17,056 bases of DNA, taken from a virus. The position numbers and the translations under genes are program-made. The stretch lies in UHGV virus genome UHGV-1593167; one strand, written 5' to 3'. Positions 37 through 17,020 of the stretch are shown one piece after another. The first letter of the stretch is position 1, and each line of letters opens with the position of its first letter. The notes under the pieces were generated by a model. That model was not told the origin of the DNA and searched no databases. It worked only from the letters and a program-made list of their open reading frames with translations.

Positions 37-55
37 ATTTAAGAAAGTGTTCTGA
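37..55. repeat. Left copy of 19-bp direct repeat ATTTAAGAAAGTGTTCTGA; putative attachment-site core (attL/attR)
   Basis: Identical 19-mer at 37-55 and 17002-17020, bracketing an element with a tyrosine integrase just inside the right copy. Weaker similarity continues beyond the core (left 111-127 CAATAAATTAAAGGGCAC vs right 17031-17046 CAATATTTAAGGGCAC). Confidence 0.6.
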
Positions 56-173
56 TTTATTAGAAATTTGCACTTAAATCAAAAAGTTACGGACAATTCA
101 ACCACCAATCAATAAATTAAAGGGCACATTAAAGTACACAATATTTGTGCCCTTCTCTGTTTCTTTCCCGTTA

Positions 174-722
174 TCAGCTAGCTGGAAACTTTTTATACAG
201 AGTTGAGAGCCCTACTCCATACGTTTTTGATACGCTTTGTCGTGATTCACCGGTTGCCATCCGCTCCCCCATTTCCCGCCATTGCTCATCCGTGAACTTA
301 GGCCTGCGACCACCAACTCGCCCTTTTGCCCTGGCTACGGCCAGCCCTGCTAAGGTACGTTCGCTATTAAGATCAGATTCATATTGTGCTGCGGAAAGGA
401 TGTTACGAAAGTTATAGCGGCCGCTGGCTGTTTTGAGATCCACGCCATCGGTAATACTGCGGAAGTTGATACCCTTTTCCTGTAACTGCTGGAACATCAA
501 CAGCGCATGCAGAACGTTGCGGCCTATCCTGTCCAGCTTCCAGACCACCAGTTCATCCCCCGGCTGCATAGTGGCGATCAGCCGTTTTAGAACCGGCCGA
601 TTCGATTTCCTCCCGCTGGCATGCTCTTCAAAAATTTTCTCACAACCCGCTGACTTGAGCGCCGTTAGTTGCAATTCAGTGTCCTGGTGGTTTGTTGATA
701 CTCGGGCATAACCGTAAATCAT
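174..722 (-). CDS. pin: Serine recombinase, DNA invertase of the Gin/Hin/Pin/Cin family
   Basis: 182 aa from the internal ATG at 722 (MIYGYARVSTNHQDTELQ...), with catalytic-serine motif YARVST, WKLDRIGR and a C-terminal HTH (GVGLSTLYKK). SD AGGAG lies 7 nt upstream of this ATG; the longer track ORF (to 881) has no plausible start. Sits next to an invertible fibre segment. Confidence 0.9.
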   Translation of the reverse strand: MIYGYARVSTNHQDTELQLTALKSAGCEKIFEEHASGRKSNRPVLKRLIATMQPGDELVVWKLDRIGRNVLHALLMFQQLQEKGINFRSITDGVDLKTASGRYNFRNILSAAQYESDLNSERTLAGLAVARAKGRVGGRRPKFTDEQWREMGERMATGESRQSVSKTYGVGLSTLYKKFPAS

Positions 723-726
723 GGGA

Positions 727-753
727 TTTCTCCTGTTATGAAAACAGGAGAAA
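727..753 (-). promoter_or_regulatory. Perfect 11-bp inverted repeat (TTTCTCCTGTT / AACAGGAGAAA, 5-nt spacer) in the invertase leader; the 3' arm contains the invertase SD
   Basis: 727-737 is the exact reverse complement of 743-753. On the pin mRNA this gives an 11-bp stem with a 5-nt loop ending 4 nt before the AUG and containing AGGAG. Confidence 0.5.
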
Positions 754-781
754 CGGCGAAGCATCACCAGATTTTTGATGG

Positions 782-807
782 TTATAAAAAAGGTTGGTTT
801 GGGAGAA
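782..807. other. Invertase crossover site 1 (hix/gix-like 26-bp site) TTATAAAAAAGGTTGGTTTGGGAGAA, core TT at 794-795
   Basis: Resembles recalled hix/gix sites (half-site TTATCAAAAACC, 2-bp central core). Shares 15 bp (TTGGTTTGGGAGAAG) in inverted orientation with the site at 2659-2684. Lies about 60 bp upstream of the invertase gene. Confidence 0.7.
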
Positions 808-1284
808 GGCTCTGCATTACCTGTTGGTGTCCCTGTTCCGTGGCCTTCCGCCACTCCGCCAACAGGCTGGCTGAAATGCAACGGTGCGGTTTTTTCTGCT
901 GAAGAATACCCGGAACTGGCAAAGGCTTATCCAACAAATAAATTGCCTGATTTACGTGGTGAGTTTATTCGTGGTTGGGATGACGGGCGCGGTATTGACG
1001 CGGGGCGCGAAATTCTGTCTGCTCAGGGGGATGCTATTCGTAATATAACCGGCACATTTGGTAATGGACAAACCGAAGCTAATGCGGCTATTAGCTTTAA
1101 TACAGCGAGTGGTGTTTTTGTAAGTCAATCAGCACTTCGTAATACGATAGGTAACACCACAATCATTCCAAATACCCCAAACAATCCTCATTTAGTCAAT
1201 TTTGATGCTTCAAGAGTAGTGCCAACTGCCTCAAAGAACAGACCAAGAAACATTGCATTTAACTATATCGTGAGAGCAGCATAA
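795..1284 (+). CDS. Silent alternative tail-fibre C-terminal cassette (Sv'-like); promoterless, expressed only as a fusion after inversion
   Basis: Reading frame begins inside crossover site 1 with no independent start signals. Encodes typical fibre C-terminal motifs (LPVGVPVPWPS..., ...RNIAFNYIVRAA). Same codon phase across the core as the fibre gene at site 2. Confidence 0.7.
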
Positions 1285-1886
1285 TGGATAAAGCAATATT
1301 AAATAGTGGACTTGTTGCTACAAAGGCAGGGGATATTACCGTTTATAACTATGATGGTGAAACGCGGGAATATATTTCCACATCAACTGAATATCTTGCG
1401 GTTGGCGTCGGTATCCCGGCATGTTCTTGTTTAGATGCACCAGTTACACATAAAGCTGGTTATACAATTTGCCGTTCAGCAGATTTAAAATCATGGGAAT
1501 ATATGCCAGACCATCGCGGTGAAATCGTTTTTAGCACCGAAACAGGGGAATCAAAAGAAATCACAGCTCCGGGTGATTACCCTGATAATACAACCACTAT
1601 CGCCCCGTTAACGCCATACGATAAATGGGATGGTGAGAAATGGGTGACGGATACCGAGGCACAGCACGGCGCAGCAGTAGATGCAGCAGAAGCACAGCGC
1701 CAGTCGCTGATTGATACTGCAATGGCCTCCATCAGTCTGATTCAGCTGAAATTGCAGGCCGGACGTAAACTAACGCAGGCAGAAACAACCCGCCTTAACG
1801 CTGTGCTGGATTACATTGACGCGGTGACGGCAACAGATACCAGCACCGTGCCGGATGTCATCTGGCCTGAACTGCCGGAGGCGTAG
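1284..1886 (+). CDS. Tail-fibre assembly protein (Tfa/gpG-U family), partner of the silent cassette
   Basis: 200 aa; ATG overlaps the upstream stop (TAATG); C-terminal ...DVIWPELPEA typical of Tfa chaperones; position inside the invertible segment. Confidence 0.75.
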   Translation: MDKAILNSGLVATKAGDITVYNYDGETREYISTSTEYLAVGVGIPACSCLDAPVTHKAGYTICRSADLKSWEYMPDHRGEIVFSTETGESKEITAPGDYPDNTTTIAPLTPYDKWDGEKWVTDTEAQHGAAVDAAEAQRQSLIDTAMASISLIQLKLQAGRKLTQAETTRLNAVLDYIDAVTATDTSTVPDVIWPELPEA

Positions 1887-2298
1887 GCCATTCAATATCT
1901 GGCGCACCGGAAGTATCGACCAGCTCCAGTGCGTCCAGATAATCCAGCCACAAATTATATTGCGCCAGTTCCTCACCTTTCAGACGACCAATAGCCGCTT
2001 TACCAGGCCATTGTTTACTGTTCATATAATCGTTGGCCTGATTAATCAGTTGCTGCTTTTCCAGTTCGGCTGCAGCAATCTGTTCCTCATATGTTGGTGG
2101 TGGAATTTCAGACCATGCAGGAAAACCATTTTCTCCAGCGATACGGATTTTTCCTTTCGGCGGTAATCCGGAAAACTCAATATACACTTGCTCATCAACT
2201 TCAACAGCATCATCTGGCCATGAGTCAGCTTGAGTGTAATCCTCTTTCATCTCCAGCGGATAGAAAGAGTTTGTAGTCGCGGAATATATGTAATTCAT
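1858..2298 (-). CDS. Tail-fibre assembly protein (Tfa/gpG-U family), partner of the currently expressed fibre
   Basis: 146 aa starting MNYIYSATTNSFYP..., C-terminal ...DIEWPTPP; SD GGAG 6 nt upstream of ATG at 2298; 3' end overlaps the convergent tfa by 29 nt. Confidence 0.8.
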   Translation of the reverse strand: MNYIYSATTNSFYPLEMKEDYTQADSWPDDAVEVDEQVYIEFSGLPPKGKIRIAGENGFPAWSEIPPPTYEEQIAAAELEKQQLINQANDYMNSKQWPGKAAIGRLKGEELAQYNLWLDYLDALELVDTSGAPDIEWPTPPAVQAR

Positions 2299-2319: not shown

Positions 2320-3102
2320 TTAACAGCCTAACGCTAAAAATGAAGCGCCGAGGCCAGGAGTACTGGCTCTGGATATAAATTTAACCGGGTCGGGACTAAA
2401 ACCTGCACAGGCAATATAACCAACAGCCCCGCTATCTGGTGTGTAGTCTTGTGAGACCAAAACACGCAGACATCTGTTTGGAAATGCAATCGGGAAATGG
2501 GTTACTACATCCTGTGCAATGCCTGGTGCGCCGATTGAGCCCCACTGAAGAATAAAACCTGATGGTAATTTTTGATATCCAGTACCTGAAACAGAAAGCG
2601 TGAAGCTACCCATATCAGGTATCTGATTCGCCCCTGTCCCTACATTCCTTTTAGCCGCTTCTCCCAAACCAAGGTATGTGAGAATGTCAGCAATAGTATT
2701 TTTCCCAATAATGTCACGGCCAACAGAAGTTAAATCAGTCTGCGCTGCTGTATCATTTCCAGTGAAATATGGGAGTTTATTTGCACCTGTTGCGAGCCCA
2801 GCTAATGCCGACAGCGTGGCATCAAGCGCCTGGAAATCTTTCCCGAAAGCGGTCCCCATTTTGGATATAAACCCGTTCAGGTCTCCATCATCAAGCACAT
2901 CCAGCCCGCTTTTGTTGGCGGTGTACTGCGCCAACGCTGCCGCGATAAAGCTGGCTTGCCGAATAGCTTTGTTGACCTGTGCGCTGGATGCTTTACCTGC
3001 CGTAAACCCTGAAAGCAGAGCCGGAAGTGCTTCCCAGTCAGCTTGTGAGGTGACGTTAGCGTTCGGATCAAGCGCGAAAGGTTTAAAGTTGTTTATTGCC
3101 AT
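2320..3102 (-). CDS. Tail fibre protein: constant N-terminal part (about 143 aa) fused in the current orientation to variable C-terminal part Sv (2320-2672)
   Basis: Start chosen at ATG 3102 (MAINNFKPF...), coupled to the upstream stop as TAATG; the track's longer ORF starts at 3120 with a poor SD. Crossover site 2 lies inside the gene at the constant/variable junction (...[13 protein letters not shown]...). Confidence 0.75.
2659..2684. other. Invertase crossover site 2 (hix/gix-like) TTCTCCCAAACCAAGGTATGTGAGAA, core AA at 2671-2672
   Basis: Left half TTCTCCCAAACC matches the recalled hix/gix half-site pattern; inverted relative to site 1 with complementary core dinucleotide; located inside the fibre ORF. 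Confidence 0.7.
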
Positions 3103-3782
3103 TAGAGTATTGTCCCCCATGCTCCAACATCGAACCCGCCGATGTATTCGTTATCCATATCAAACCCAAAGAATTTAGAGCCTTCTGACGGTGTTTCTAC
3201 CGAAGGCGTTTCAACATCACCGGCCCATACGCCAGCTGATTTAACGGTGAGATAGCCCTGTTTGATAGCGGCGATCAGTTCGAGAGACACATCAGAAATA
3301 TCAGTTTCAGGGAAAACCCAGACCGAAATCGTCATGTCCTGGTTGTCGACGATCTGCATCCTCAGGCCTGAGCCTGCGGTAGCAGCGTCAAGGATGGGAG
3401 GCAGAGAGTCGTTCCGACCGTCCCAGTTGTTGATAGCGATTTTCGCTTTCAGAATGATGCGGTACGTCTCATCGCTTAGCGTCGTATAGCCAGAATCAGG
3501 ATCATATGGCCCTTGCCAGATGCCCTGGTCATACCCAAGCCCGTCAGTGTCCCAGCTGAAATAAACTCCGCTAATTGGCTGGCTGACTATGCGACTGCGT
3601 CCGATCCACAGACCGAGGATGTCGAGCTGTACACCGACAGCAGTATCGATATCGAAGGCTGTTATAAGCCCTGACATAGCGCTGGACACATCAATCAGCG
3701 GGCGGGTGCTCAGATCTATATGGTCAAAAAAGAGTGGCTTGGTAGCGTGGTAGTTAGTGATCAGTTCGGTGTATTTGCTCAT
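3102..3782 (-). CDS. Baseplate/tail protein, Mu gp48 / P2 gpI-like (DUF2313-like)
   Basis: 226 aa; sits between the J-like gene and the tail fibre; ATGA overlap with upstream gene; family recalled, not searched. Confidence 0.6.
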
Positions 3783-4978
3783 GAGGTCACCGTGATACTG
3801 ATATTCGCGGTGCTACAGGACGCTGAAGCATCATAGGCAATATCAATGTTTGATGCCGATACGCTGCCAGACGACTTACCGATCAGCAGGTCGGTAATAT
3901 CGTAATAGCGGGCATTCCCGCCGCTCACAACGCCGAGGTTTGCCGGGGAATAAATACGGCTCAGCAGAACGTCGTCGCCAATTGTTAGGCCATTTATATA
4001 ATCGGCAACAGCCTGTTTAATCTGCTCGCCGATTTGAGAGGTATAGCCGGTAAAAACTTTCAGGGTAATGGCTACGAAAATTGGCACATCGGTAGAGCGC
4101 GAAAAACTGATGACGTGAGGATTACCATAAGTATCCGGCACTGTGACAGAAGTTTTACCGTAAGTTGCGGTTCCCTGCCCTTTATTCCCCCTGATGGTCT
4201 GGGCTATCTCGGTAACATCCCCTCCATCGACGATGGCGGAAATAGAGTGTGGCGGCAGCCCGTTGCTGTCGGTTGCCCCAGTGTCGTTCTCATATAGTTT
4301 GTGACGTGTCACGCCAGCAACATTAGCGATAGCACCGTCGACACCTTCAAACGGTGTGATCGATGGTAGCGCGACGCTTTGCCCCTGCCGAATGCGCAGC
4401 TCTGCGTCGGTTTCGGCTGGTGAACCGACAGTAGCCGCAACTGGATTGGTTACCGACACCCAACCTCGGGTCGGGGTGTTGATAGTGGTAATAGTCCCGG
4501 CCAGCGCCGCAACCGAACCGCTATTCGCACATGTGGCCGTCACCAGCACAGTACCATCAACGCCGATCGCCACACTCGCTGGAAAATTCCAGATAATGCC
4601 GTTTTTATCCCGTGCGGAGCCATTCGTGATAGTCGTGCCTGCCGTACCGGTTAACAGAAGGTCAGCAGTAGAGTTTGTCGCTACTTTTCGCGTGATCCCG
4701 TTAATTTTCACATTGTTGCTAAGCGCTGCGGCCTGCGCTGTCGTCGGTGAAAAAGAGTTGTAGATCTCGATAGCGGTATTGTTAGCGTCATGCACCGCAA
4801 GAGCCACCAGCGCGACCATTTGCCCATCTTTGCTGTCTGGTTCGAGGTAGGCATCACTACCGTAAATCTGCCTGAAATAGCTGGTCAGTGTATCAAGGAT
4901 TGTCTGGTAATCAGGCGCACTAATCCCCTGGGCGGTTACCGTTGCCGATAGCCCCAGCGTGTCGAGGTTCAAAGCCAT
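3779..4978 (-). CDS. Baseplate J-like protein (Mu gp47 / P2 gpJ family)
   Basis: 399 aa; size and position after the W-like gene; family recalled from sequence character. Confidence 0.7.
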   Translation of the reverse strand: MALNLDTLGLSATVTAQGISAPDYQTILDTLTSYFRQIYGSDAYLEPDSKDGQMVALVALAVHDANNTAIEIYNSFSPTTAQAAALSNNVKINGITRKVATNSTADLLLTGTAGTTITNGSARDKNGIIWNFPASVAIGVDGTVLVTATCANSGSVAALAGTITTINTPTRGWVSVTNPVAATVGSPAETDAELRIRQGQSVALPSITPFEGVDGAIANVAGVTRHKLYENDTGATDSNGLPPHSISAIVDGGDVTEIAQTIRGNKGQGTATYGKTSVTVPDTYGNPHVISFSRSTDVPIFVAITLKVFTGYTSQIGEQIKQAVADYINGLTIGDDVLLSRIYSPANLGVVSGGNARYYDITDLLIGKSSGSVSASNIDIAYDASASCSTANISITVTS

Positions 4979-5332
4979 TTATGCCTCGCTTGTTACAGTC
5001 GTCTGGCCGTAGATTGTGTCAATGGAGGAAGTGAAGGTGACGCGACGGCTGGTGCCGTCATAATTGGTATCGAAGGAAAGAATCGACAGAACGCCCGGTG
5101 TATCCTGTATGCGTTCGCGTATGGCCAGGATGTAGACATCTGATCGCTGCTTCCCAAGCACTGACTGAACATACGGCGTGCCTTCCGTCAGATCGAGAAA
5201 CCACTGACCGCGCCACAGCTCGAAACGGGTTTTTACGGCCTGGGCGACACATTCCGGACTGTCGATAAGGAAAGTATCGTCACCCTGGCCGAAAGTGTAA
5301 TCGCCTTCAGTATCTTCGCGACGGTATCGCAT
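4979..5332 (-). CDS. Small baseplate protein, Mu gp46 / P2 gpW-like (gp25-like)
   Basis: 117 aa; TAATG coupling with the upstream spike gene; position between spike and J-like genes. Confidence 0.6.
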   Translation of the reverse strand: MRYRREDTEGDYTFGQGDDTFLIDSPECVAQAVKTRFELWRGQWFLDLTEGTPYVQSVLGKQRSDVYILAIRERIQDTPGVLSILSFDTNYDGTSRRVTFTSSIDTIYGQTTVTSEA

Positions 5333-6072
5333 TATTGCGGCCCTCCGGTAGTTCCCCCGCCAGTCTGTACTCCGCCATGTTTATGCGTGGCGACACTGAT
5401 ACCAGAAGCTGTTACGTCATTCGTTACCGTCACCGGCCCAAGCATCGTCGCAGTACCGCCGCTTTCTCCCATTCCCTGAGACAGGTTACCGTTAATCGTT
5501 ACGTTGCCGTTCAGCGTGATAGTCGGGGATGTGATTGTCGTTCCACCCTCAGCCGTAGCCGTAAGCTTGCCCGGCGTTTTAACGGTGATGTTATGCCCTG
5601 CTGCGACCTCTACGAACGCCGAGCCATCATCGGTTCGCAGCTGCGCGGCGCTGGTACTGATACCGCTGATTTTCTGCGCTTGCGACTGCGGGCCAACGAT
5701 GGCGAACGCATCAGATAAGTCATGCTGGCGCGGGTCGACGGTCTCCTGAACGCCGCCGCTCTGCCACCAGAAATCGATGCAACGGTCGGCAAAGATCAGC
5801 AGGCACTCGTCGCCTTCTTTTACCGGAAAGGTCAGCGTGCAACCGCCGCCGCGCGGGAAGATAACCGGCACATCCACCAGCGGTTTTAATTCGGTGGAGC
5901 CATCGCCAACAATACCGCGAAGCGCTACCTCTACTGTGCAGGTAACAGTGTCAGGATCGAACGACTGAATGATGCCGGGCATCGCTACGCGCATCTGGGT
6001 AGACACCGAATCGACAATGGCCTGCGCGGTCTGCTGCTCACCGCCGATCTGTGATTGAGTTGGAATTGGCAT
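5332..6072 (-). CDS. Baseplate assembly protein V / central spike
   Basis: 246 aa; N-terminal V-type domain and Gly/Thr-rich C-terminus (...HKHGGVQTGGGTTGGPQ); SD GGGGG 7 nt upstream of ATG 6072. Confidence 0.7.
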   Translation of the reverse strand: MPIPTQSQIGGEQQTAQAIVDSVSTQMRVAMPGIIQSFDPDTVTCTVEVALRGIVGDGSTELKPLVDVPVIFPRGGGCTLTFPVKEGDECLLIFADRCIDFWWQSGGVQETVDPRQHDLSDAFAIVGPQSQAQKISGISTSAAQLRTDDGSAFVEVAAGHNITVKTPGKLTATAEGGTTITSPTITLNGNVTINGNLSQGMGESGGTATMLGPVTVTNDVTASGISVATHKHGGVQTGGGTTGGPQ

Positions 6073-6080
6073 AAAACCCC

Positions 6081-6107
6081 CATAAAAAAACCAGCCGAAG
6101 CTGGTTT
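6081..6107 (-). terminator. Rho-independent terminator-like hairpin on the minus strand, directly upstream of the spike gene
   Basis: Stem AAACCAGC / GCTGGTTT with loop CGAA (6088-6107); on the minus strand it is followed by a run of 7 T (6081-6087 are A on the plus strand). Confidence 0.5.
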
Positions 6108-6294
6108 GGTATCAATTATCTCTTAGTAACTAAGCCACATCAGTGTGAAGTAAGGCTTTTCCGCTGCAATGGCACACATTCACAAGGTGTATTAGGATAT
6201 GTTTGCAACAAGTAAGCATTGAAAATCAATTTCAGCCATGAAGCCGCCATAGAGTGGACCTGCACCATCGCATTATTGACTACAGGAGTAACAA

Positions 6295-6585
6295 ATGGGA
6301 TTTAGATTTCGTAAAAGAATCCGGATTGCGCCCGGACTCGCGATCAACATTAGTAAAAGCGGAGTAAGCACTTCAATTGGTGGTAAAGGTTCCACCATTA
6401 ACATCGGAAAAAAAGGCGTAAAGATGACAAATGGCCTTCCCGGCACGGGGCTGTCGCATACCACTAACCTTTACTCTCCCGGGAAATCGACAGAAAAAAA
6501 ACAACTTACTCATAAGCAAAAAATAATTAGAAACATCCTGTTCGTAATTATTGTGTTTATTATAATTAAAGCTCAATATTTTTGA
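6295..6585 (+). CDS. Small membrane-anchored protein with DUF4236-like N-terminal motif and C-terminal transmembrane helix
   Basis: 96 aa, MGFRFRKRIRIAPGLAINISKSGVSTSIGGKGSTINIGKKG... (family recalled); hydrophobic ILFVIIVFIII near the C-terminus; SD AGGAG 6 nt upstream; opposite strand to the surrounding tail genes. Confidence 0.6.
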   Translation: MGFRFRKRIRIAPGLAINISKSGVSTSIGGKGSTINIGKKGVKMTNGLPGTGLSHTTNLYSPGKSTEKKQLTHKQKIIRNILFVIIVFIIIKAQYF

Positions 6586-6590
6586 CGCAT

Positions 6591-6616
6591 GCCCGCCTAT
6601 CTGGCGGGCTATTTTA
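6591..6616. terminator. Bidirectional terminator-like hairpin between convergent genes
   Basis: Stem GCCCGCC / GGCGGGC with loop TATCT (6591-6609), followed by a T-rich tract on the plus strand and an A/T-rich tract on the minus strand. Confidence 0.55.
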
Positions 6617-6944
6617 CTTTTCGGCAGTCGTATGTTGCATACTGACGCGGCGAATCCATGCTGGCTTGCAGCCACTGAGCATTCAGGATTGCTTTACCAT
6701 TACGGCCAATAAACTCCATTCCTACCCATCGCCCTGGTTGATTGGTCGCTATGCGCCATTCAATTTTGACGTTGTTATAATCACCGTCATTTTTAAGAAA
6801 TGTCACTTTTTGCGATTCAGGTTTAGCTCCGTTTACGCGAGCGAAACCATCATCAGCCCAATGGATTTTGAAATCACCACACTGAGAATCAGCAATAGCT
6901 TGGAAAGAAAATAATGCTGCAATGATAAAAATTACGAGTTTCAC
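6609..6944 (-). CDS. Small secreted protein of unknown function
   Basis: 111 aa from GTG 6944 (SD GAGG 8 nt upstream); signal peptide MKLVIFIIAALFSFQA; two Cys; AT-rich gene. The track's longer start at 6986 lacks an SD and would overlap the hub gene. Confidence 0.55.
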   Translation of the reverse strand: MKLVIFIIAALFSFQAIADSQCGDFKIHWADDGFARVNGAKPESQKVTFLKNDGDYNNVKIEWRIATNQPGRWVGMEFIGRNGKAILNAQWLQASMDSPRQYATYDCRKVK

Positions 6945-6954
6945 GTCCCGTACC

Positions 6955-8019
6955 TCAGTAGTTTGTTTTTTGCATAGCACCAGCATTAACTAAATCACGA
7001 CTGCCACGCGCAAAACACATCAAATCCATGTACCACGCCTGACCTCTGGTGTCGCCAGTATAGTCGATAGCTTTGACGATATAAACGCCATCTGTCGCAA
7101 TGCTGGCAGCCTGTGACGTTGTGCCGGTCAGTGCGCGGTTGCCGTTCTCTTCCGTTTCAGTGATACGCCCGGGCGACTGTGCGATTTCGCTATTGCCGAG
7201 CGCGGCGCGGTACACCGAAGCCTGATCGAGCTGGATAAGACCATTAATGCGGATGTTTGGGTTTATCAGGCACCGCACGTTTACGCCGCCGCCCATTGTC
7301 TGTTGCGGCATACCGATCAGGCCAGTATTGGCATTTAACACAATGGCTTCGTGAATATATTTATCCTCCGGCACCATCTGGACCTGTCCATCCACCAGCT
7401 GCCATGTCGCTTTGCACTGCGCAGCAATATTATCCATCACGTTACGGGTGGATGAGTAAATCGCGCGGCCACGAGGAAACACGGTATCAGGAAAATCGCC
7501 GGTAATGCCCTGTGTCACGCCGAACGCGTTGAAATCCTGCATCGTCGCCCGGTGCAGATCCGCAACGGTATAGCCAGCGGCAAGCGTGGTGATGGTAGTC
7601 GCGTAGAGGAACGCTTCGTGGTTACTGATGGCCTGAATCAGCACCCAGGAATCGGTGATGTTGTCCTTCCCGGTGACGGTGAAGCGAATATCACCGTCAA
7701 ATATCAGGCCGTAGTTCTGACCGTTCACCTGCCCTACCTGGTCTGGTGAAATCTCCCGGGCGACACCAACCTGGCTCGCATCAACATCCGGCGCAATACC
7801 GTCATACCCGGCAATGATGCGAATTTTTGCAAACTCCTGCCCCAGTATCTTGTTCGTGGTATCGGTCGAAAGGTTGTAAATTTTCACGTTTGCCACGCGC
7901 GGCCAGCGTGTATCTGCCCACTCGATCTGGAACGTGACCTTAAAATCAGACAGGGAAATACCCTGCCCGTTCTGGTCCAACAGCTGCAACTCAAAATGGC
8001 GCATCCAGTTAAGAGACAT
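6955..8019 (-). CDS. Putative baseplate hub / tail protein, assigned by position
   Basis: 354 aa; SD AGGAG 5-6 nt upstream of ATG 8019; lies between the tape-measure-like gene and the spike. Family not recognised with certainty. Confidence 0.45.
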   Translation of the reverse strand: MSLNWMRHFELQLLDQNGQGISLSDFKVTFQIEWADTRWPRVANVKIYNLSTDTTNKILGQEFAKIRIIAGYDGIAPDVDASQVGVAREISPDQVGQVNGQNYGLIFDGDIRFTVTGKDNITDSWVLIQAISNHEAFLYATTITTLAAGYTVADLHRATMQDFNAFGVTQGITGDFPDTVFPRGRAIYSSTRNVMDNIAAQCKATWQLVDGQVQMVPEDKYIHEAIVLNANTGLIGMPQQTMGGGVNVRCLINPNIRINGLIQLDQASVYRAALGNSEIAQSPGRITETEENGNRALTGTTSQAASIATDGVYIVKAIDYTGDTRGQAWYMDLMCFARGSRDLVNAGAMQKTNY

Positions 8020-8021
8020 TT

Positions 8022-8327
8022 CTACTCCTGCACGAAAATGAGGTGGCTGTATGTGCCGAGGTTGGTTTTGGTGGGCTCGTCTGGTGCGCCCTTATCGGTC
8101 GCCACCACCAGCGCACCATCAATGCCAAGCTGTGGATATTGTCGTAATAGGTTCACGCCGGTCAGGAGAGGTACGCCAGAAAGAAGCGCAGCACCGCCGC
8201 TATCCATCACGTCCATGATCCAGCCAGCCGCATCGCGCCAGATGATCCTGAGCGTATAGGTGGTATTGCCCAGCAAAACGCGGAACTGCTGATTGTCAGG
8301 AGAAAGCGGTATTTCGTTAAACTGCAT
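8022..8327 (-). CDS. Small phage tail protein, unknown function
   Basis: 101 aa from ATG 8327 (SD GGGGGA 5 nt upstream); coupled to neighbouring genes in the tail operon. Confidence 0.5.
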   Translation of the reverse strand: MQFNEIPLSPDNQQFRVLLGNTTYTLRIIWRDAAGWIMDVMDSGGAALLSGVPLLTGVNLLRQYPQLGIDGALVVATDKGAPDEPTKTNLGTYSHLIFVQE

Positions 8328-8328
8328 A

Positions 8329-8931: not shown

Positions 8932-10532
8932 TATCTCGGTCCTGCGGGGAGTTGCTGGGTTAACTGTGAATTCACGCCCTTTTGACGATCAACAGTCAAA
9001 CGGGCAGCCTCGCGCGGATCGGAAACGCCGTGGATGTTAATATTCGTTTCCTGCTGAATCACCGGGGCGCTGGTGGGCATGTTGCTCATTACTTTCGGAA
9101 TGTAGTTACGCGTTTCCTGCGGCATTAACCCCATGCCATAGCGCTTAACATTCCCGATCCCCCAGTTATATGATGCCAGTGCTTTGCTAAGGTCTCCACC
9201 GTTCTGCCGCAACAGCTGGCTGAGGTACTTAGCTGCGGCCTGAGCTGACTTTTGCGGGTCGAATACATCGTTTCCGCGAAGGCCCATGTCGCGCGCCGTA
9301 CCATCCATAAACTGAAACAGACCTTTCGCGCCTGCGCCGGACATGGCGAACTGGTTACCACCTGACTCGGTTATCGCCACACTTTTCAATAGACCAGCTG
9401 GAAGTTGATAAAGCGACTCAAGTTTATTGAACATTGGCCCCATCCAGTCGAGCAATACTTTGCCCTGGGCTGTGGCCCGTGGACGTTTGACTGATTGCGC
9501 AAACTGGGAGGGGTCACCCGATATATTTGGAGAGATTTCAGCAGCTCCAGCCGGGGAGAAAAATAAATTACCGATTTTGGCAATCCCGTCTGAGATTTTT
9601 TCAAGATAACCATTAGCAGCCTGCTGACGGTTTTTTATTTCATCTCTTTCATGCGGGGCAATTTCATTACTACGAACATGCTGTTCCGCCCCGGGAATGT
9701 CAGGCTGAACATTATCGCCATAAACGACGCCATTGCTTTGCGCCTGACGAATAATCTTACCTGGGCCACCATGCAGCCAATCCATCCATGCGGGCCATTC
9801 TCTTACCTCGCTAACATCTTTTCGCCCAAGGTCGGTTTTGATGCCAACCGTAGCAAGAGCATCACCAATGTTCCTTTTGGTATAGTCCAAAGATGATTTA
9901 GCACTGGCTTTTATGTTTTCACGATCTGAAACCAGGTAACCAGCATACGCTCCCCATAATTTAAGCCATGGAGGTATCGGAAGACCGGATATTTTTGCGA
10001 ATGCTCCCAATACTTTTGTTACCCATACCCCAGCGATGAAAGTAGCCAAAATTTCCAGCGAGTTCTGCCATCCACCAACAGAATCTTTCAGCCCCAGAAG
10101 CTTATCGCGCAGCCAGAGAATTGCCTTTTTCGCCTTTTCTATTGCAGGCTCCCACTTGGACCAGTCAATCAGGCTTTTACCGCCTTCTTTCCACGTCTGA
10201 TAATCGTCATAGAGTAATCCGATCGCCAGAATCAGCGTGGTGATAATTCCAATCGGGGATTTCAGGAACGCAGAATTAAGCAGACGCCATGCGACAAGTA
10301 GAGCACCGAATATTTTCAGCAGATTTTTACTGCCATCGTCAAGACGCTTCCACCAGTCGATGACAGAGCCAGCGCCCTGTATCAGCCGCCACGCCATTCT
10401 CGTGAATGCGTTCGCAAGCCAGATCACGCCTTTAATAACTCTGGTCAGCGTCTCTTCAATCTTCGGGAAATTGTCGAGGATGCGCCGCCGCAGGCTGTCC
10501 AGCGAACCAGCCAGGCCACCAGCGAAGTTCAC
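8931..10532 (-). CDS. Tape-measure-like tail protein fragment with hydrophobic segments and a C-terminal lytic transglycosylase (SLT) domain; probably 5'-truncated
   Basis: SLT motifs (ITESGGNQ..., GLFQF, SYNWG); hydrophobic helices typical of tape-measure C-terminal regions. The ORF opens with GTG directly after an in-frame stop and abuts an oppositely oriented operon. Confidence 0.55.
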   Translation of the reverse strand: MNFAGGLAGSLDSLRRRILDNFPKIEETLTRVIKGVIWLANAFTRMAWRLIQGAGSVIDWWKRLDDGSKNLLKIFGALLVAWRLLNSAFLKSPIGIITTLILAIGLLYDDYQTWKEGGKSLIDWSKWEPAIEKAKKAILWLRDKLLGLKDSVGGWQNSLEILATFIAGVWVTKVLGAFAKISGLPIPPWLKLWGAYAGYLVSDRENIKASAKSSLDYTKRNIGDALATVGIKTDLGRKDVSEVREWPAWMDWLHGGPGKIIRQAQSNGVVYGDNVQPDIPGAEQHVRSNEIAPHERDEIKNRQQAANGYLEKISDGIAKIGNLFFSPAGAAEISPNISGDPSQFAQSVKRPRATAQGKVLLDWMGPMFNKLESLYQLPAGLLKSVAITESGGNQFAMSGAGAKGLFQFMDGTARDMGLRGNDVFDPQKSAQAAAKYLSQLLRQNGGDLSKALASYNWGIGNVKRYGMGLMPQETRNYIPKVMSNMPTSAPVIQQETNINIHGVSDPREAARLTVDRQKGVNSQLTQQLPAGPR

Positions 10533-10553: not shown

Positions 10554-10760
10554 ATGGTTCATCAGCACTACGGTACACAGACAGTAAACCGCGGCGCAGT
10601 TCAGCCGGGGATGCTCGTCAAACACAAAGACTCAACCTGGACGGCATCAGCTAACGCTCGCGGACGTTTGTATCTGCATCGCGGCGTAGAAATGACTTAC
10701 ACCAAGGATTTGCTGGTTGAAGTTTATCTGAACGGTCTGGGGCATGGACTCAGCCACTAG
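10554..10760 (+). CDS. Small protein (68 aa), first gene of the early operon; possible Kil-type protein
   Basis: SD GGAG 6 nt upstream of ATG; occupies the position that kilR holds upstream of ydaE-racC-recE in Rac. Identity is inference from synteny only. Confidence 0.4.
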   Translation: MVHQHYGTQTVNRGAVQPGMLVKHKDSTWTASANARGRLYLHRGVEMTYTKDLLVEVYLNGLGHGLSH

Positions 10761-10771: not shown

Positions 10772-10933
10772 ATGTTAGACAAGAAATGCGGATATTGCGG
10801 CAAGCCGGTTAAAACGGAGGAAGTAATCAAGAGCACCCTTCTCTATCGCAACGGCTCACAGCTGGCGCGCAAAGAAAAAGAGTATTGCTCCAAACGTTGC
10901 GCTTCGCACGACCAGATGGCTCACGAAGGCTAA
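10772..10933 (+). CDS. Small zinc-ribbon protein (53 aa; CxxC...CxxxC), not in the ORF track
   Basis: MLDKKCGYCGKPVKTEEVIKSTLLYRNGSQLARKEKEYCSKRCASHDQMAHEG; SD GGAGG 4 nt upstream of the ATG; four Cys at positions 6, 9, 39, 43. Confidence 0.5.
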   Translation: MLDKKCGYCGKPVKTEEVIKSTLLYRNGSQLARKEKEYCSKRCASHDQMAHEG

Positions 10934-11071: not shown

Positions 11072-13981
11072 ATGGAATTTTTCCATCTGATAAAAGCCAG
11101 TCAGAAGTCTGGCAAGAAAGATGCAGTGATTTGGTTCACTGCGAAAAGTGTAGCGCGCGCCAATCTCCAACTCGATGTGGCACTGGAAGAAGCCGGAATT
11201 GAAGAAACTGGCCGCGGTAAAGATTATGCCAAACCAATCCGCACCGATTTCCCGGTATATGACGACCTGCCGGAAGAAGGCGCAGTGGATTACACCTGGT
11301 GCGAACGCTACGAACTGCAGAACGATGACCGCACCTGGCTGCCAAAAGTCACAGCTGAAAACTCTGACGAGAAAACGGCTCAGACCGTTGATAGTCACAT
11401 AACTACTGAGTCAACGCTGCCAGAAACCGCTGGCATCACGCTGGACGAACACGACGACGACTCAACCCTCTACCCGGTAGTGCAGATGCCGTTTCGTAAG
11501 CAACTGCTTTCCCAGTTCACCGCCGACGAACTGCGCCACCACGTAACCCGCGAAGAGTACGAAGCTATCGGCGCGCTGGAGATGGACACTGATAACAGTT
11601 ACGTCCAGAACTTGCTGTTAGCTGCTGAGAACTGCCCGGAAGTGAAGGGTTACGACACCAAAGACCTGTGGCGCTACACCGATGCCATTCGCAAAGTGTT
11701 CAGCCAGGACAAGCGTCACGAACTCGCGCTGGTACTCCGTTTCACCAGAATGTGGGCGGCTACTGATTACATTGACCGTGGCATCCTGGCGCGTGAATGG
11801 GCTGCCGGTAATCACATCAGTAGTGTTCAGCGTACTGATTCCGGAACCAATGCCAACGGCGGTTACGTCACTGACCGTGGACCTGATACATACCATACCC
11901 TTGACACTCTCGATTTAGAGATTGCATGTGCCCTTCTGCCTATGGACTTCAACCACTTCGAGATCCCGGGCAGCATTCTTCGTCGCGCTAAAGAAATCGT
12001 GACCAAAAAAGAAGAACCGTGGAAATCATGGAGCAGCATTCTGCGCAATCAACCCGGCGTTCTTGGCGTTAACCGCACAGCTATTTTTAACCTGATACGT
12101 ATCGCGCCGGAAAATATTCATCTAACTCCTGTCGCTCACCTGGAGTTTGTTAACCGGACCATGACTGCTGCGTTTAATGCTGCTGTTGAGTTATTGCCAT
12201 TGCATGAAGCTGAGCCCGCAACACAGGAAATTCCCCAACCTGAAAGTAAGGAGTCTCCACGCAAACCCTTCTGCACTCACGAAGAGAACCTGCAACGCGT
12301 ACGTGAAGAAGAAGCACGCCGCCGCGCAGAGGAAGCGACAGCACAACCACATAAAGCCGAACAAGAACTGGTTAAAAATGTCGGCAACGGAATATTCGAT
12401 GTTACGGCTTTACTGCAGAACTCAGCAACTCATGGCACGAAACAGGCTACGGAAACCACCAGCAATGTGCAGGTTCAAGAAACTGTCAGTGATGAAAAAA
12501 ATGTTGGTAATGAAATGCAGTCAGGCGAAAGCAGTCTGGAAACTGGTGAAGAGTCACATCCCGGCCAGCAGGCCGATGTAAACCAAAATACGGAATCTGT
12601 CGCTCAAAATAGCGATTCTGTAAACCAGACTGAACCAGTTTTGGCACACGTCGAGCCAGAGGCGCAATCTGACGAACAAGCTGTTTTTTACCCCGATTAC
12701 TTCGAGCCTGGGCGCTATGAAGGTCTGCCGAACGAGGTTTACCACGCTGCCAACGGCATCAGTTCCACCCAGGTAAAAGATGCGCGCGTTTCGCTGATGT
12801 ACTTCAATGCGCGCCACGTTGAGAAAACCATCGTCAAAGAGCGCTCCTCAGTGCTGGACATGGGAAACCTGGTACATGCGCTGGCGTTGCAGCCAGAACA
12901 GCTCGATGAAGAATTTAGCGTTGAACCCGTAATTCCGGAAGGTGCATTTACCACCACGGCAACGATCCGCGCGTTTATTGATGAGTACAACGCCAGCCTG
13001 CCAGCGCAACTGAGCGCAGACGATATCAAAGCTTTGCTGGATGAATACAACGCCACCCTGCCAGCGCTGGTGCCGCTGGGCGCTAGCCTGGATGAAACGG
13101 CGCAGAACTATATGGCGCTGCCAGCTGAATTCCAACGTATCGATGCAGATCAGAAGAAGACAGCAACAGCAATGAAGGCGTGCATCAAAGAGTACAACGC
13201 CACCCTGCCAGCGCAGATTAAAACCAGCGGCAGCCGCGACGCACTACTCGAACAACTTGCGATTATCAATCCTGACCTGGTCGCGCAGGAAGCTCAGAAG
13301 CTGCAACCGCTGAAAGTCTCTGGCACGAAGGCCGATCTGATTCAGGCCGTGAAGGCAGTCAAACCAGATGCAGTGTTCGCCGACGAGCTGCTCGATGCTT
13401 GGCGCAACAACCCGGAAGGGAAAGTGCTGGTTACCCACCAGCAACTTGCCACCGCGCAGGCAATTCAGTCAGCACTGCTCTCGCACCCGACCGCAGGCAT
13501 GCTGCTAACCCACCCGAGCCGCGCCGTTGAGGTGAGCTACTTTGGCTTTGACGAGGAGACGGGACTGGAAGTTCGTGTGCGCCCTGACCTTGAGATCGAC
13601 CTAGACGGCGTGCGTATCGGTGCTGACCTGAAAACCATCAGCATGTGGAATGTTAAGCAGGAAAGCCTGCGCGCCAGGCTACACCGGGAAATTATTGAAC
13701 GTGATTATCACCTGAGCGCGGCTATGTACTGCGAAACCGCAGCGCTGGATCAGTTCTTCTGGATTTTCGTCAACAAAGACGAGAACTACCACTGGATCGC
13801 CATCATCGAGGCATCCGCTGAACTACTGGAGCTGGGTATGCTCGAGTACCGCAAAGCGATGCGCAATATCGCAACCGGATTCGACACAGGTGAATGGCCA
13901 GCGCCAATCACTGCTGACTACACCGACGAACTGAACGACTTCGACCTGCGCCGCCTTGAAGCGCTGCGTACTCATGCATAA
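11072..13981 (+). CDS. recE: Exodeoxyribonuclease VIII (RecE) homologue: RecE-type N-terminal region, acidic disordered linker, C-terminal PD-(D/E)XK nuclease domain
   Basis: 969 aa from ATG 11072 (SD GAGG 8 nt upstream; the track's start at 10967 has none). N-terminal and C-terminal blocks match recalled Rac RecE (e.g. NEVYHAANGISSTQVKD; RPD...GADLKT). Confidence 0.75.
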   Translation: MEFFHLIKASQKSGKKDAVIWFTAKSVARANLQLDVALEEAGIEETGRGKDYAKPIRTDFPVYDDLPEEGAVDYTWCERYELQNDDRTWLPKVTAENSDEKTAQTVDSHITTESTLPETAGITLDEHDDDSTLYPVVQMPFRKQLLSQFTADELRHHVTREEYEAIGALEMDTDNSYVQNLLLAAENCPEVKGYDTKDLWRYTDAIRKVFSQDKRHELALVLRFTRMWAATDYIDRGILAREWAAGNHISSVQRTDSGTNANGGYVTDRGPDTYHTLDTLDLEIACALLPMDFNHFEIPGSILRRAKEIVTKKEEPWKSWSSILRNQPGVLGVNRTAIFNLIRIAPENIHLTPVAHLEFVNRTMTAAFNAAVELLPLHEAEPATQEIPQPESKESPRKPFCTHEENLQRVREEEARRRAEEATAQPHKAEQELVKNVGNGIFDVTALLQNSATHGTKQATETTSNVQVQETVSDEKNVGNEMQSGESSLETGEESHPGQQADVNQNTESVAQNSDSVNQTEPVLAHVEPEAQSDEQAVFYPDYFEPGRYEGLPNEVYHAANGISSTQVKDARVSLMYFNARHVEKTIVKERSSVLDMGNLVHALALQPEQLDEEFSVEPVIPEGAFTTTATIRAFIDEYNASLPAQLSADDIKALLDEYNATLPALVPLGASLDETAQNYMALPAEFQRIDADQKKTATAMKACIKEYNATLPAQIKTSGSRDALLEQLAIINPDLVAQEAQKLQPLKVSGTKADLIQAVKAVKPDAVFADELLDAWRNNPEGKVLVTHQQLATAQAIQSALLSHPTAGMLLTHPSRAVEVSYFGFDEETGLEVRVRPDLEIDLDGVRIGADLKTISMWNVKQESLRARLHREIIERDYHLSAAMYCETAALDQFFWIFVNKDENYHWIAIIEASAELLELGMLEYRKAMRNIATGFDTGEWPAPITADYTDELNDFDLRRLEALRTHA

Positions 13982-13986: not shown

Positions 13987-15105
13987 ATGATGATGGAAAA
14001 CACGAATATCGTAACCGCTGAACAGCAGACTCCAAACACGATCTCAGCCAGCAATGCCATTTTCAACGTGCAGGCTTTAACCCAGCTTCAGTCTGTCGCC
14101 GGGTTGATGGCACAGGCAGCCGTAACGGTGCCTGAGCACCTCCGCGGCAATCCGGCAGACTGCATGGCCATCATCATGCAGGCGATGCAGTGGGGTATGA
14201 ACCCTTACGCCGTGGCGCAAAAGACGCACCTGGTTAACGGTGTCCTGGGATACGAAGCGCAACTGGTTAATGCGGTGATCTCCAGCTCAAACGCCATCGT
14301 TGGCCGCTTTCACTATGAGTACGAGGGCGACTGGTCGAAATGTGCCAGCAGCCGCGAGATAACCGTTAAAAAGCCTGCGAAAGGTGGCGGGACGTACGAC
14401 AAGAAAGAAATGGTACGCGGTTGGGAAAGTGCTGATGAACAAGGACTGTCGGTACGGGTAGGTGCCGTTATTCGCGGTGAAAGTGATATCACCTGGGGAG
14501 AGCCTGTTTTCCTCTCCAGCGTAATCACACGTAATTCTCCACTTTGGGTATCAAACCCGAAACAGCAGATCGCTTATCTGGCACTCAAATACTGGGCGCG
14601 CCTGTATTGCCCTGCAGTTGTTCTTGGTGTGTACACCCCTGATGAGATTGAACAGCGCACAGAAAAAGAGATCAACCCAACGCCGCAACGCGTTAGCCTG
14701 GCTGATATCTCAGGTGACACCGTCACAACCACGCAAAGCGCACAGGAATCGTCGGTAAATGTCGACTCTCTTGCCGATGATTTCCGCGAACGCATCGAAT
14801 CTGCTCAGGACGTGGAAAGCGCCAAATCGCTGCGTGCCGACATTGAAACGGCGAAAGCTACGCTGGGATCCGCACTATTCACCGAGCTGAAAAACAAAGC
14901 CGTAAAGCGTTATTACCTAGTGGATGCACGCAACAAGGTTGAGGAGGCTATTAAATCCCTGCCCCAGCCCGACGAGCCGCATGCAGCCGAACGGTTCGCT
15001 GAAGCCGAGCGCATGCTTGCATCTTCAAAGCGTCACTTAGGCGATGAACTGCACGATCAATTCAGCATCACCCTGGCGGATATGAAACCGGAATACGTGG
15101 CCTGA
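13987..15105 (+). CDS. RecT/Redbeta-family single-strand annealing protein with a long C-terminal extension
   Basis: 372 aa; core resembles recalled Redbeta/RecT (QWGMNPY..., LWVSNPKQQIAYLALKYWARL...); starts 6 nt after recE stop with three consecutive ATG. Confidence 0.65.
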   Translation: MMMENTNIVTAEQQTPNTISASNAIFNVQALTQLQSVAGLMAQAAVTVPEHLRGNPADCMAIIMQAMQWGMNPYAVAQKTHLVNGVLGYEAQLVNAVISSSNAIVGRFHYEYEGDWSKCASSREITVKKPAKGGGTYDKKEMVRGWESADEQGLSVRVGAVIRGESDITWGEPVFLSSVITRNSPLWVSNPKQQIAYLALKYWARLYCPAVVLGVYTPDEIEQRTEKEINPTPQRVSLADISGDTVTTTQSAQESSVNVDSLADDFRERIESAQDVESAKSLRADIETAKATLGSALFTELKNKAVKRYYLVDARNKVEEAIKSLPQPDEPHAAERFAEAERMLASSKRHLGDELHDQFSITLADMKPEYVA

Positions 15106-15143
15106 CGAGACCGGGAGGGGTAACCCTCCCTCAAGGAGATTAT

Positions 15144-15386
15144 ATGCGACTGATCAATCGAGGAAGTAAGCAATCACCTTTAGCTCGCCAAGCATGCGAC
15201 ATCGCGCTGGCAGCTCACTTGCAAACATATGGCGACTATGGGCGAAGCAAGATGAAAGAGACTTATACGGTGAAGGTTGAAGGCGTGAAAGTCTGGGTGG
15301 AGGTGGTGAACCGAAAGGCGAGCTACGTGGCCACAGCGATGACCGGCATGCGCCGTCTCCGCTCCCTGCCCGGGCAGGTTGGTTGA
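15144..15386 (+). CDS. Hypothetical protein (80 aa) between the annealing-protein gene and the Xis/AlpA-like gene
   Basis: SD AGGAG 6 nt upstream of ATG; co-directional with the early operon; no family recognised. Confidence 0.4.
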   Translation: MRLINRGSKQSPLARQACDIALAAHLQTYGDYGRSKMKETYTVKVEGVKVWVEVVNRKASYVATAMTGMRRLRSLPGQVG

Positions 15387-15427
15387 AAAAGATTTTGAAT
15401 GGCCCGAACGGGCAACTGGAGAGAGCT

Positions 15428-15625
15428 ATGGATGATATTTTGGTAACGTCAGACCTGACCAGTCGCTACAAAATTTCACGCAAAACCCTTTGGTCATGGC
15501 AAAGTGCAGACACAATGCCTCGGGGCTTCGTATGCCCGTTCCCACCCCCTGACTGGCCCGGCAACCCTAACCGCTGGCGCTCTGAGTCAATCAAAGAGTG
15601 GGAGGATAAAAAGAAGATAAATTAA
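15428..15625 (+). CDS. AlpA/Xis-family HTH protein (putative excisionase or regulator)
   Basis: 65 aa from ATG 15428 (SD GGAG 6 nt upstream). Motif [22 protein letters not shown] followed by a Trp/Pro-rich tail ending IKEWE, typical of AlpA/Xis-like proteins. Adjacent to the integrase. Confidence 0.6.
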
Positions 15626-16815
15626 CTGAAGGGCTCTCCGATGATCTCTTCAAGATGGCTCTGCCAAACGCGGAGCCAGTGTTTCTGATCATCGATATAG
15701 TCATGAAGGTTGTAATGCGCCATAACCCCCACCATCTGATGCCCGAGCAGCTTTTCAATTACGTGCGGCGGGCAACCTAACTCAGAGAGATTTGTGGCTA
15801 TCGTCCGCCTCATATCATGAAGCGACCACTCTGCCATACCTGTTCCATTCCAAATAGAACGGGCGTAATTGGATGCCACAGGTGAATGAACGGGCGAATC
15901 TTTGATCCCGCCATCAATTTTACGTTGTGAAGTCACCAGGTGATTGGTGTTTATTTTCTTGAGGTGATTTCTGACCAGGTTAACGGCGGCGTCTGAGAGT
16001 CCCCTTCTAATATGTACCCGAGTTTTATAACTGCCCGCAGGCACGACCCACTCATTATCATCCAATCGAAACCATGATCTCTCACTAAGTCGAATCTCAG
16101 CCGTACGGCATCCGGTAAGCATAATAAATTTCACCAGGAAAACGGACTCTATCGACATATGGCTTTTCAACCACTGATAGATTTTGCGCAGATCGTCATC
16201 GTCCATCCTGCGAGTTCTCTTTTTAGGCTTTTGCCCGACATCAGATGGCAGTAATCCCTCGAGTGGGTTTGAGGCGATCACACTTCTGTTAACGCAGAAC
16301 CTAAACGCCCGTTTGCACAGCGAAAGCATGTAATGAGCCATCACCCTGCTTTCTATAGAATCGAAGACGTTGATCCAGTGCATTTTCGCTGTGTTATCGA
16401 CTTTGACATTCTTCATCGGTTCGGCGATATGTTTCTCAAACACCTGGCGATAGTAATCGACTTTAACTAGCCCGTTAGCGATACAGTGCCTTTCAATCCA
16501 GTAATTGAACGCTTCGGCAACGGACATCGCTTCCTGTCGGGTCTGCTTATCCAGCTTCACCTGCTCTCGCGGATCCAGTCCCTCAGTTAACCAGTTTCTG
16601 AATTGTTGGCGACGCTCTCTTGCCTGGGTGATACTCATTGCAGGATAATCACCAACATTGAGTTTTACCGCTTTACCGGCCCAGCGATACCGATAGAAAA
16701 ATGATATTTTTCCGGCCTGGCTGATTCTGGCGTTGAGCCCGTGCGAATCAGAAATAATCTCGATATCATCTCTTTTCTTGCCGAGCGCCTTCCTGAGCTT
16801 TGTGTCGGTGATCAT
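15622..16815 (-). CDS. int: Tyrosine integrase, P4/CP4-57-like family
   Basis: N-terminal [10 protein letters not shown]... resembles the P4-type LTDTxIKAAK motif; C-terminal catalytic region has LHDMRRT and MAHYNLHDY (R-H-R-Y pattern). Start uncertain (16815, 16830 or 16872); none has a clear SD. Confidence 0.85.
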
Positions 16816-16820
16816 TGAAT

Positions 16821-16861
16821 GGGTACACATTTTTGTTTTTGGGTACACAAAAGTGTACACA
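16821..16861. repeat. Three direct repeats of GTACACA (two as GGGTACACA) in the integrase leader; candidate arm-type binding sites or operators
   Basis: GGGTACACA at 16821-16829 and 16841-16849, GTGTACACA at 16853-16861; between the integrase start and attR. Confidence 0.4.
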
Positions 16862-17001
16862 AAGTTGCCCACTCAAAGCTACACGCAATGTAACACTAGT
16901 TCGCAGAGTGTTATGGTTTACATCCTTGAAAGCCTGCTGGATAAGGGTTTAGCGTAACAGAACGTTTTTACGCGGAATTGTTCGTAATATGCCAAATGAC
17001 A

Positions 17002-17020
17002 ATTTAAGAAAGTGTTCTGA
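17002..17020. repeat. Right copy of 19-bp direct repeat ATTTAAGAAAGTGTTCTGA; putative attachment-site core
   Basis: Identical to 37-55; about 190 bp outside the integrase gene start. Confidence 0.6.

Follow-up and report, generated by a model that had tools for sequence, protein, structure and literature searches.

A defective prophage at the phi80 attachment site of Escherichia coli, very probably left by one short-homology deletion

Phage phi80 has been reported to integrate at the E. coli gene yciI (PMC5727415). Here we describe a stretch of 17,056 nt from the virus genome UHGV-1593167 (the whole stretch is called the window), which shares with the phages of the phi80 group (phi80, mEp237, HK225 and mEpX1) the pin-attP-int-xis arrangement and the attachment (att) core in yciI. 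Those phages, however, are complete and have lambda/N15-type non-contractile tails, whereas the window has the baseplate of a contractile tail and is deleted. Closer in layout are intact prophages of ∼41 kb (such as NZ_CM160084, NZ_CP062811 and NZ_CP063503), which have the site and gene order of the window plus the 24 kb that it misses. Citrobacter phage Omnitron shares the structural half of the window and differs in the early and integration half. We characterized the window as, very probably, a defective prophage at the phi80 site that came from a ∼41-kb parent by one short-homology deletion of ∼24.3 kb; the prophage is of a known kind, at a classical attachment site, and this deletion allele of it, not described before, is ordinary and recent.

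The boundaries were observed directly. The 19-mer ATTTAAGAAAGTGTTCTGA has only two copies in the window, in direct orientation, at 37–55 (attL core) and at 17002–17020 (attR core, found by repeat search). The match between the copies stretches to 22 nt with one mismatch, and the chance expectation for such a pair of 19-mers in 17 kb is ∼0.0005. An initial annotation, made without database searches, had taken the perfect 19-bp repeat to bracket one integrated element with an invertase at its left edge (174–722) and an integrase at its right edge (15622–16872). Both the bracket and the single integrated element, with att sites at both ends, were borne out. At each end of the window, the outermost 36 bases belong to the E. 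coli chromosome: the end of yciI on the left and sequence upstream of kch on the right. Translation places the 3′-end of yciI (…VSVKPFKKVF*) at 1–55 on the plus strand, and the RefSeq end of yciI coincides with window position 55.

We rebuilt the empty site as 91 nt (left flank, a single repeat copy and right flank) and compared it with 5,426 complete E. coli genomes. It was contiguous in 5,272 of them, many at 100% identity, so that the empty site with one repeat copy, by which the initial annotation had proposed to check integration, was found in related genomes. The xis-int-attR arm was present in 173 genomes of the same set (∼3%). In mEp237 the att core is annotated as attP, between the invertase and integrase genes. 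Its first 17 bases, the canonical phi80 core (window 37–53), are identical to those of the window, and position 18 is A instead of G; positions 54–55 of the window also match between the two copies in this allele. Core position 18 falls in the yciI stop codon, as the frame ending …KPFKKVF* is closed by TGA at 53–55, inside the att core. The attL sequences of three relatives (L002, L006 and L007) have TAA where the window has TGA, and this G/A difference is the sole polymorphism of the att core. Since it only swaps TGA for TAA, integration of a phage with either allele leaves YciI with an intact C-terminus. The repeat, at the 3′-end of yciI, is the attachment core of phi80. Rfam and tRNA scans of the window gave no matches, hence the element is not targeted to a tRNA gene.

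Several E. coli genomes have complete prophages at the yciI/kch site that contain both halves of the window, arranged and oriented as they are here. The DNA that separates the two contains the remainder of a 755-aa tape-measure/transglycosylase gene, the tail chaperone, tube, sheath and neck genes, head proteins, portal, TerL, holins, endolysin and spanin, as well as Q, RusA, replication O and P, YdaT and a cro-like/cI-like pair; one such prophage at the phi80 site measures 41,112 bp from attL to attR. Pfam matches in these intact relatives include E217_gp31_N sheath, Phage_Tube_PhiTE, Phage_tail_terminator_9, Dit_like, Pam3_gp18, E217_GP41, Sheath_initiator, Baseplate_J and Phage_Wedge1. The tail/baseplate/fibre/pin block of the window is 97–99.9% identical in nucleotide sequence to the prophages H1 and H74, its best left-arm relatives. 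Strain TD225-C4 (H3) matches the right arm at 100.000% over 6,541 bp, and an intact prophage matches it at 99.985%. The whole structural half also appears, at 87–96% nucleotide identity, in the deposited genome of phage Omnitron; a literature search for this phage found nothing relevant. The initial annotation had regarded the mixing of modules as a property of the element itself. This did not hold, because intact prophages of ∼41 kb at the same site already contain both modules. The gene mix is inherited from a family of intact mosaic phages in which a phi80-type integration arm is coupled to a contractile tail.

The two halves meet in a microhomology, CCACCAGCGA(A)GTT, at 10516–10529, with a perfect block of 10 bp at 10516–10525. 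Intact relatives match the window from its left end to 10529 on the tail side and from 10516 to its right end on the early side. The intact tape-measure allele that comes closest (99.9% identity over 830 bp) reads …CAGCCAGG-CCACCAGCGA-G-GTT-TGAGCC…, the intact prophages have …GCGGCA-CCACCAGCGA-A-GTT-CACTCAG… at a site 38 bp upstream of kil, and the window combines them as …CAGCCAGG-CCACCAGCGA-A-GTT-CACTCAG…. The two parental sites are in direct orientation and agree at 13 of 14 positions overall, with the crossover within the perfect block; in comparison with H1, 24,263 bp are missing. This structure is a standard signature of a single short-homology deletion, and it points to illegitimate recombination or slippage as the likely mechanism.

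The tail-side gene cut by the deletion encodes a 5′-truncated tape-measure/lytic transglycosylase with an SLT domain (8931–10529, minus strand), of which the C-terminal ∼532 of 755 codons are left. Its product aligns to 267–658 of the 673 positions of the profile phrog_2276, and the N-terminal third is lost. The GTG that opens the present 533-aa open reading frame (ORF) lies in kil-side sequence, so that this start is a chance product of the join.

Five metagenome assemblies in ENA contain the truncated tape-measure product beside kil. One contig of 139 kb (ERZ27234081 k119_16802) is 100% identical to the whole window, and the other four assemblies have the junction at 99.97–100% identity. The junction is real. 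None of the complete E. coli genomes carries it, and a scan with the 36-nt junction sequence, GCCAGGCCACCAGCGAAGTTCACTCAGAAAAACTGG, gave no match in a contig collection with one genome per species, which says little given that sampling. All ORFs except the tape measure have the same lengths as in intact relatives, and the deletion is recent. As the arms are 99.9–100% identical to those relatives, with no decay since the deletion, intact ORFs are not evidence of selection.

We propose the following history. The parent would have been a temperate phage of ∼41 kb with lambda-like genome organisation, resident at the 3′-end of yciI next to kch. It would have combined an arm for integration and recombination of the phi80 group (kil-ydaE-recE-recT-DUF4060-xis-int), a head and contractile-tail module resembling that of phage Omnitron and, next to attL, an e14-type tail-fibre cassette invertible by Pin. 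One illegitimate recombination between the tape-measure gene and the site 38 bp upstream of kil then very probably removed ∼24.3 kb with the 5′-end of the tape-measure gene and the genes for tube, sheath, head, terminase, lysis, Q, replication and immunity. Left over are the distal end of the tail region (baseplate, fibre, switch and pin), the distal part of the early-left arm and both att sites.

Deletions of this kind are not unique to the window. At the same site, strains TD225-C4 and TUM12355 carry prophages of this type with other internal deletions; in their junctions baseplate J is joined to ydaT, with differing endpoints, and the immunity genes are kept. Internal deletions that spare both ends recur in this prophage family. 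We also observed an analogous remnant at the lambda attachment site, by ybhB and bioA (GCA_040336015.1, L014, contig ABTCPO010000001.1, 5866–14593), in which int/xis of lambda type directly abuts a distal baseplate, fibre and pin block from the same tail family.

From its gene content we infer that the remnant cannot form particles, replicate or lyse its host. The initial annotation had stated that head, terminase, sheath and tube genes are lacking; this was correct, with every long ORF in the window accounted for. In addition, profile searches found no lysis, replication, antiterminator or repressor gene among the ORFs of the window, an absence that the annotation had not mentioned. Neither the late promoter nor Q is left for the tail genes. 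Upstream of the kil-ydaE-recE-recT-DUF4060-xis genes, intact relatives have a 577-bp intergenic region with terminator-like hairpins and a TTGACA-N17-TTAATA site; this region is gone from the window, and a sequence scan found no convincing promoter created at the junction. A consensus scan for promoters and terminators performed at chance level (19 found versus 17.2 expected) and cannot settle expression. The kil-recET-xis operon is probably silent, much like recET in Rac. With the repressor deleted, and with the Kil family annotated as inhibiting cell division, the viability of the lineage argues against strong expression of the kil operon. The int gene is transcribed from the att side and its product is identical to that of a viable phage; xis, however, is at the distal end of an operon without its promoter, and excision would for this reason probably be inefficient or rare. 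Inversion of the fibre segment by Pin may still occur, with no effect on the host.

Several considerations weigh against our interpretation. In the collections there is no one intact prophage with ≥99% identity to both arms: H1 and H74, the best relatives for the left arm, have diverged right arms (that of H74 is partly frameshifted), and thus the exact parent had to be deduced from two relatives. The silence of kil-recET and of the tail genes is read only from the upstream loss and from a consensus scan at chance level. Also, the occurrence of the allele in five samples could reflect more than neutral carriage.

The last point bears on the possibility that the remnant is domesticated, i.e. 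that the deletion took place as described and selection then preserved its product, either for recET/kil or Pin or as a store of fibre and baseplate sequence with which incoming phages could recombine. We consider this unlikely. It is true that all 21 remaining ORFs are intact and that the independent remnants H3 and H4 (same site) and L014 (lambda site) also keep the pin-fibre and int ends. Still, arms so close to those of intact relatives have had no time for decay, which makes intactness uninformative, and any internal deletion leaves both ends. The allele was seen in five metagenome samples against 0 of 5,426 complete E. coli genomes, and three of the five, whose accession numbers look consecutive, may be related samples. 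The initial annotation had left two alternatives, a decayed prophage kept for its recombination and accessory genes or an element dependent on a helper. The decayed prophage was the right choice, and the element is bounded by att sites and defective; for its being kept for those genes we saw no evidence, the arms being too close to intact relatives, and the deletion too recent, to show selection.

A related and slightly less likely idea is that the remnant is maintained as an excisable reservoir, which would give host-range (fibre/baseplate) and recombination modules to related superinfecting phages or be mobilised by recombination with them. One could argue for it from the matched att sites, the Int and Xis identical to those of a viable phage, the intact Pin switch, the hypervariable fibre cassette, the promoter-less kil-recET and the persistence in a circulating lineage of gut E. 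coli (five metagenomes).

Illegitimate recombination between two elements, either a superinfecting phage and a resident prophage or tandem lysogens, would also join a tail half to an early half, and in this family, which is highly mosaic, the best matches of the left and right arms are indeed in different genomes. We regard such a hybrid as improbable. The arms stand in the native order and orientation of single intact prophages at the same site, with a matched attL/attR pair, and tandem lysogens would reach the same product through a deletion of this same kind; an internal deletion is more parsimonious than the hybrid, as the layout is already that of single intact prophages.

More doubtful still, to the point of being very improbable, is a helper-dependent, satellite-like element that would excise by its own Int and Xis and obtain replication and packaging from an intact relative. 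The intact attL, attR, int and xis would suit it, both proteins being identical to those of the viable phage mEp237, but there is no replication, repressor/antirepressor, terminase, cos/pac-bearing or capsid-size gene, and the pac/cos region of the parent lies in the deleted DNA. One boundary cuts the tape-measure ORF at a microhomology, and the other remnants at the same site have other junctions, so no compact architecture is conserved. The dependence on a helper offered by the initial annotation fails on the same lack of replication, packaging and regulatory genes, and on the boundary through a gene. Least credible of all is a metagenomic mis-join at a short repeat: the window does derive from a metagenome assembly, but the shared repeat of only 10–14 bp is far under the k-mer sizes in the contig names (k119, k127) and the identical junction occurs in five separate assemblies from different pipelines.

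A defective prophage left by internal deletion thus remains our preferred interpretation, and its two halves are described below. The baseplate region of the tail half, apart from one gene, is encoded on the minus strand. By Pfam and profile matches it includes a baseplate wedge protein (DUF2612/Phage_Wedge1, 3102–3782), baseplate J (3779–4978; the identical protein occurs in 446 blocks of the assembly collection), a gp25-like sheath initiator/baseplate wedge subunit (4979–5332), a central spike with the spike N-terminal domain and an Apex motif (5332–6072), a conserved tail-module protein (phrog_3443, 6609–6986; 111 aa in relatives), the baseplate hub (phrog_196 with a weak E217_GP41 match, 6955–8019), a baseplate plug of the Pam3_gp18 family (8022–8363) and a Dit-like baseplate protein (8329–8931). 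The label ‘Mu-like baseplate’ given earlier is no more than generic: a spike, a gp25-like protein and Baseplate_J, all generic components, are present, and the comparison, made by Pfam families, gives a set of Dit_like, Pam3 plug, E217 hub, sheath initiator, Baseplate_J and Wedge1/DUF2612.

Within the baseplate operon, between spike and hub, window 6073–6608 holds a small gene in reverse orientation with its own terminator-like hairpin. This moron-like gene encodes a DUF4236 protein (6295–6585, plus strand; Pfam), and the hairpin follows it at 6591–6609. The same slot is occupied in NZ_CP062811 by a gene annotated as ‘effector-associated constant component EACC1’ and in other relatives by other small ORFs; it looks like a variable moron/cargo slot. 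A PADLOC scan of the small and unassigned proteins of the window, the product of the DUF4236 slot included, returned no matches.

In the right arm the genes are on the plus strand except int. They are kil, of the cell-division inhibitor family (10554–10760), a gene for a small protein of the ydaE family (10772–10933, profile match), a recE-family exonuclease gene (969 aa, 11072–13981; Pfam and homologue comparison), a recT-family annealing protein gene (370 aa, 13993–15105; Pfam and profile), a DUF4060 gene (15144–15386, Pfam) and xis, which encodes an excisionase of 65 aa (15428–15625) and is convergent with int. The phi80-type tyrosine integrase (15622–16872, minus strand; Arm-DNA-bind_3 and Phage_integrase domains) has 416 aa in its longest form. 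The arm is 96% identical to mEp237 in nucleotide sequence; in amino acids Int (416/416), Xis (65/65), DUF4060, Kil and YdaE are 100% identical, RecT 99.7% and RecE 93.5%. The int-xis region is 99.9% identical in nucleotide sequence to the phi80 record X04051 and has the same layout. Given its identity with mEp237, we assign the right arm to the phi80 group. ‘Rac-like’, the term of the initial annotation for the early module, is no more than an analogy, as Rac shares gene order and distant similarity only.

Several further observations concern these genes. The longest int frame opens at GTG and not ATG, as the 1986 record X04051 noted for phi80; RefSeq calls a 397-aa form (15622–16815). The centre of recE (12971–13215) contains a 38-nt direct repeat in three copies, 82–84% identical, with start-to-start spacing of 60 and 147 nt. 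The length of RecE varies by allele (944 aa in NZ_CM160084). RecT, with 269 aa in Rac, is longer here; in a 372-aa form of the ORF (13987–15105) the RecT domain covers residues 39–228 and is followed by a C-terminal extension of ∼140 aa that has no Pfam match.

Next to attL lies the fibre switch, which by its sequence features is structurally intact and of the e14/Pin kind. The pin gene (174–722, minus strand) encodes a serine DNA invertase of 182 aa that is 100% identical in amino acids to the mEp237 invertase and has Resolvase (PF00239, 3.6e-39) and HTH_7 (PF02796, 1.5e-9) domains; the N-terminus GYARVST includes the expected serine. Two crossover sites of 26 bp in inverted orientation, 20/26 identical to each other, flank a segment of 1.85 kb. 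The left site, TTATAAAAAAGG-TT-GGTTTGGGAGAA at 782–807, was located by an inverted-repeat search and has the half-site of the e14 sites in K-12. The right site, at 2659–2684 and with the reverse complement TTCTCACATACC-TT-GGTTTGGGAGAA, has a dyad symmetry of 10/12. The half-site with centre, TTGGTTTGGGAGAA, is common to both window sites and to both crossover sites of the e14 P segment in K-12.

The tail fibre (266 aa, 2320–3120, minus strand; Pfam and translation) has a constant N-terminus up to the motif LGLGE, where the right crossover site sits in the gene, and then a variable Gp53-like C-terminus inside the invertible segment. An alternative C-terminal cassette with a Collar domain (808–1284, plus strand) has no start codon of its own in the present orientation; an in-silico flip replaced the Gp53-like C-terminus by this cassette and produced an in-frame fibre of 312 aa. 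Each cassette is paired with a tail-fibre assembly gene, at 1284–1886 (plus strand) for the alternative fibre and at 1858–2298 (minus strand, Pfam) for the one currently expressed, and the two are convergent. In related loci the pin, constant-fibre and wedge flanks are 99.9–100% identical; the segment is hypervariable and both orientations occur. The exact switch allele of the window was seen in one orientation only, and an exact-protein look-up of the 266-aa fibre found none on record. ‘E14-like’ was a fair description of this switch: amino acid identities are 90.5% for TfaE (with the assembly protein of the alternative cassette), 58% for StfE and 55% for PinE, and the crossover half-site is identical.

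At 806–808, exactly at the left Pin crossover site, the match to the siphovirus mEp237 and to several prophages stops; the site acts as a mosaic boundary. In mEp237 (L005, 22459–22584) we saw a 45-aa relic of the fibre segment, 67% identical, beside an orphan pin. The invertase of the phi80 group looks like a leftover of a fibre switch; there pin is an orphan with no more than the 45-aa relic.

Beyond yciI, where tonB is expected, NZ_CP035860 (L001, 1342–3091) and L011 (15721–21200) contain other foreign genes, for a second serine recombinase, a DNA adenine methyltransferase and an HNH protein, which point to another hotspot for insertion beside att80 in some strains.

The window is a clean, datable case of prophage decay, in which one microhomology-mediated deletion would have stripped all lethal and particle-forming functions while both ends stayed. 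Its unusual module mix was traced to intact mosaic phages with a phi80-type integration arm and a contractile tail. The fitting annotation is that of a defective phi80-site prophage whose tape-measure gene is a truncated pseudogene, and not that of a new kind of mobile element; beyond correct annotation its significance is slight.

Comparison with known systems places the window as follows. A tailocin was rejected, as the sheath, tube, chaperone, tape-measure N-terminus and lysis genes are all in the deleted DNA. A complete inducible phi80-type phage is excluded with ∼24.3 kb gone, including head, tube, sheath, terminase, lysis, replication and repressor genes. A phage satellite of the P4, PICI or cf-PICI type was rejected as well: among the 22 ORFs there is no replication module, helper-responsive switch or packaging/capsid-redirection gene, and no PADLOC match. 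The remnants of TD225-C4 and TUM12355 and the prophage of DH5alpha resemble the window in att site and int arm (100% in TD225-C4); the first two retain the immunity region, which the window does not. The DH5alpha prophage, of which only the int arm was seen in this analysis, we take to be phi80dlacZ, with an internal deletion that keeps both ends.

Rac of E. coli K-12 has the order kil-ydaE-recE-recT-xis-int at one prophage end, as in the window, and is likewise defective, but it is integrated at ttcA instead of yciI. Its proteins are distant from those of the window (RecE 28% over 379 aa, in the N-terminal region only; Kil 34%; YdaE 40%), its RecT, Xis and Int gave no match at E ≤ 1e-5, and there is no nucleotide similarity. 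The element e14 of K-12 has another integrase and another site (icd), no recET, and a wedge protein, ymfQ, annotated with a DUF2313 domain versus DUF2612 in the window; it shares with the window a cassette of fibre C-terminus and tfa inverted by a serine invertase, and it is likewise decayed by deletion.

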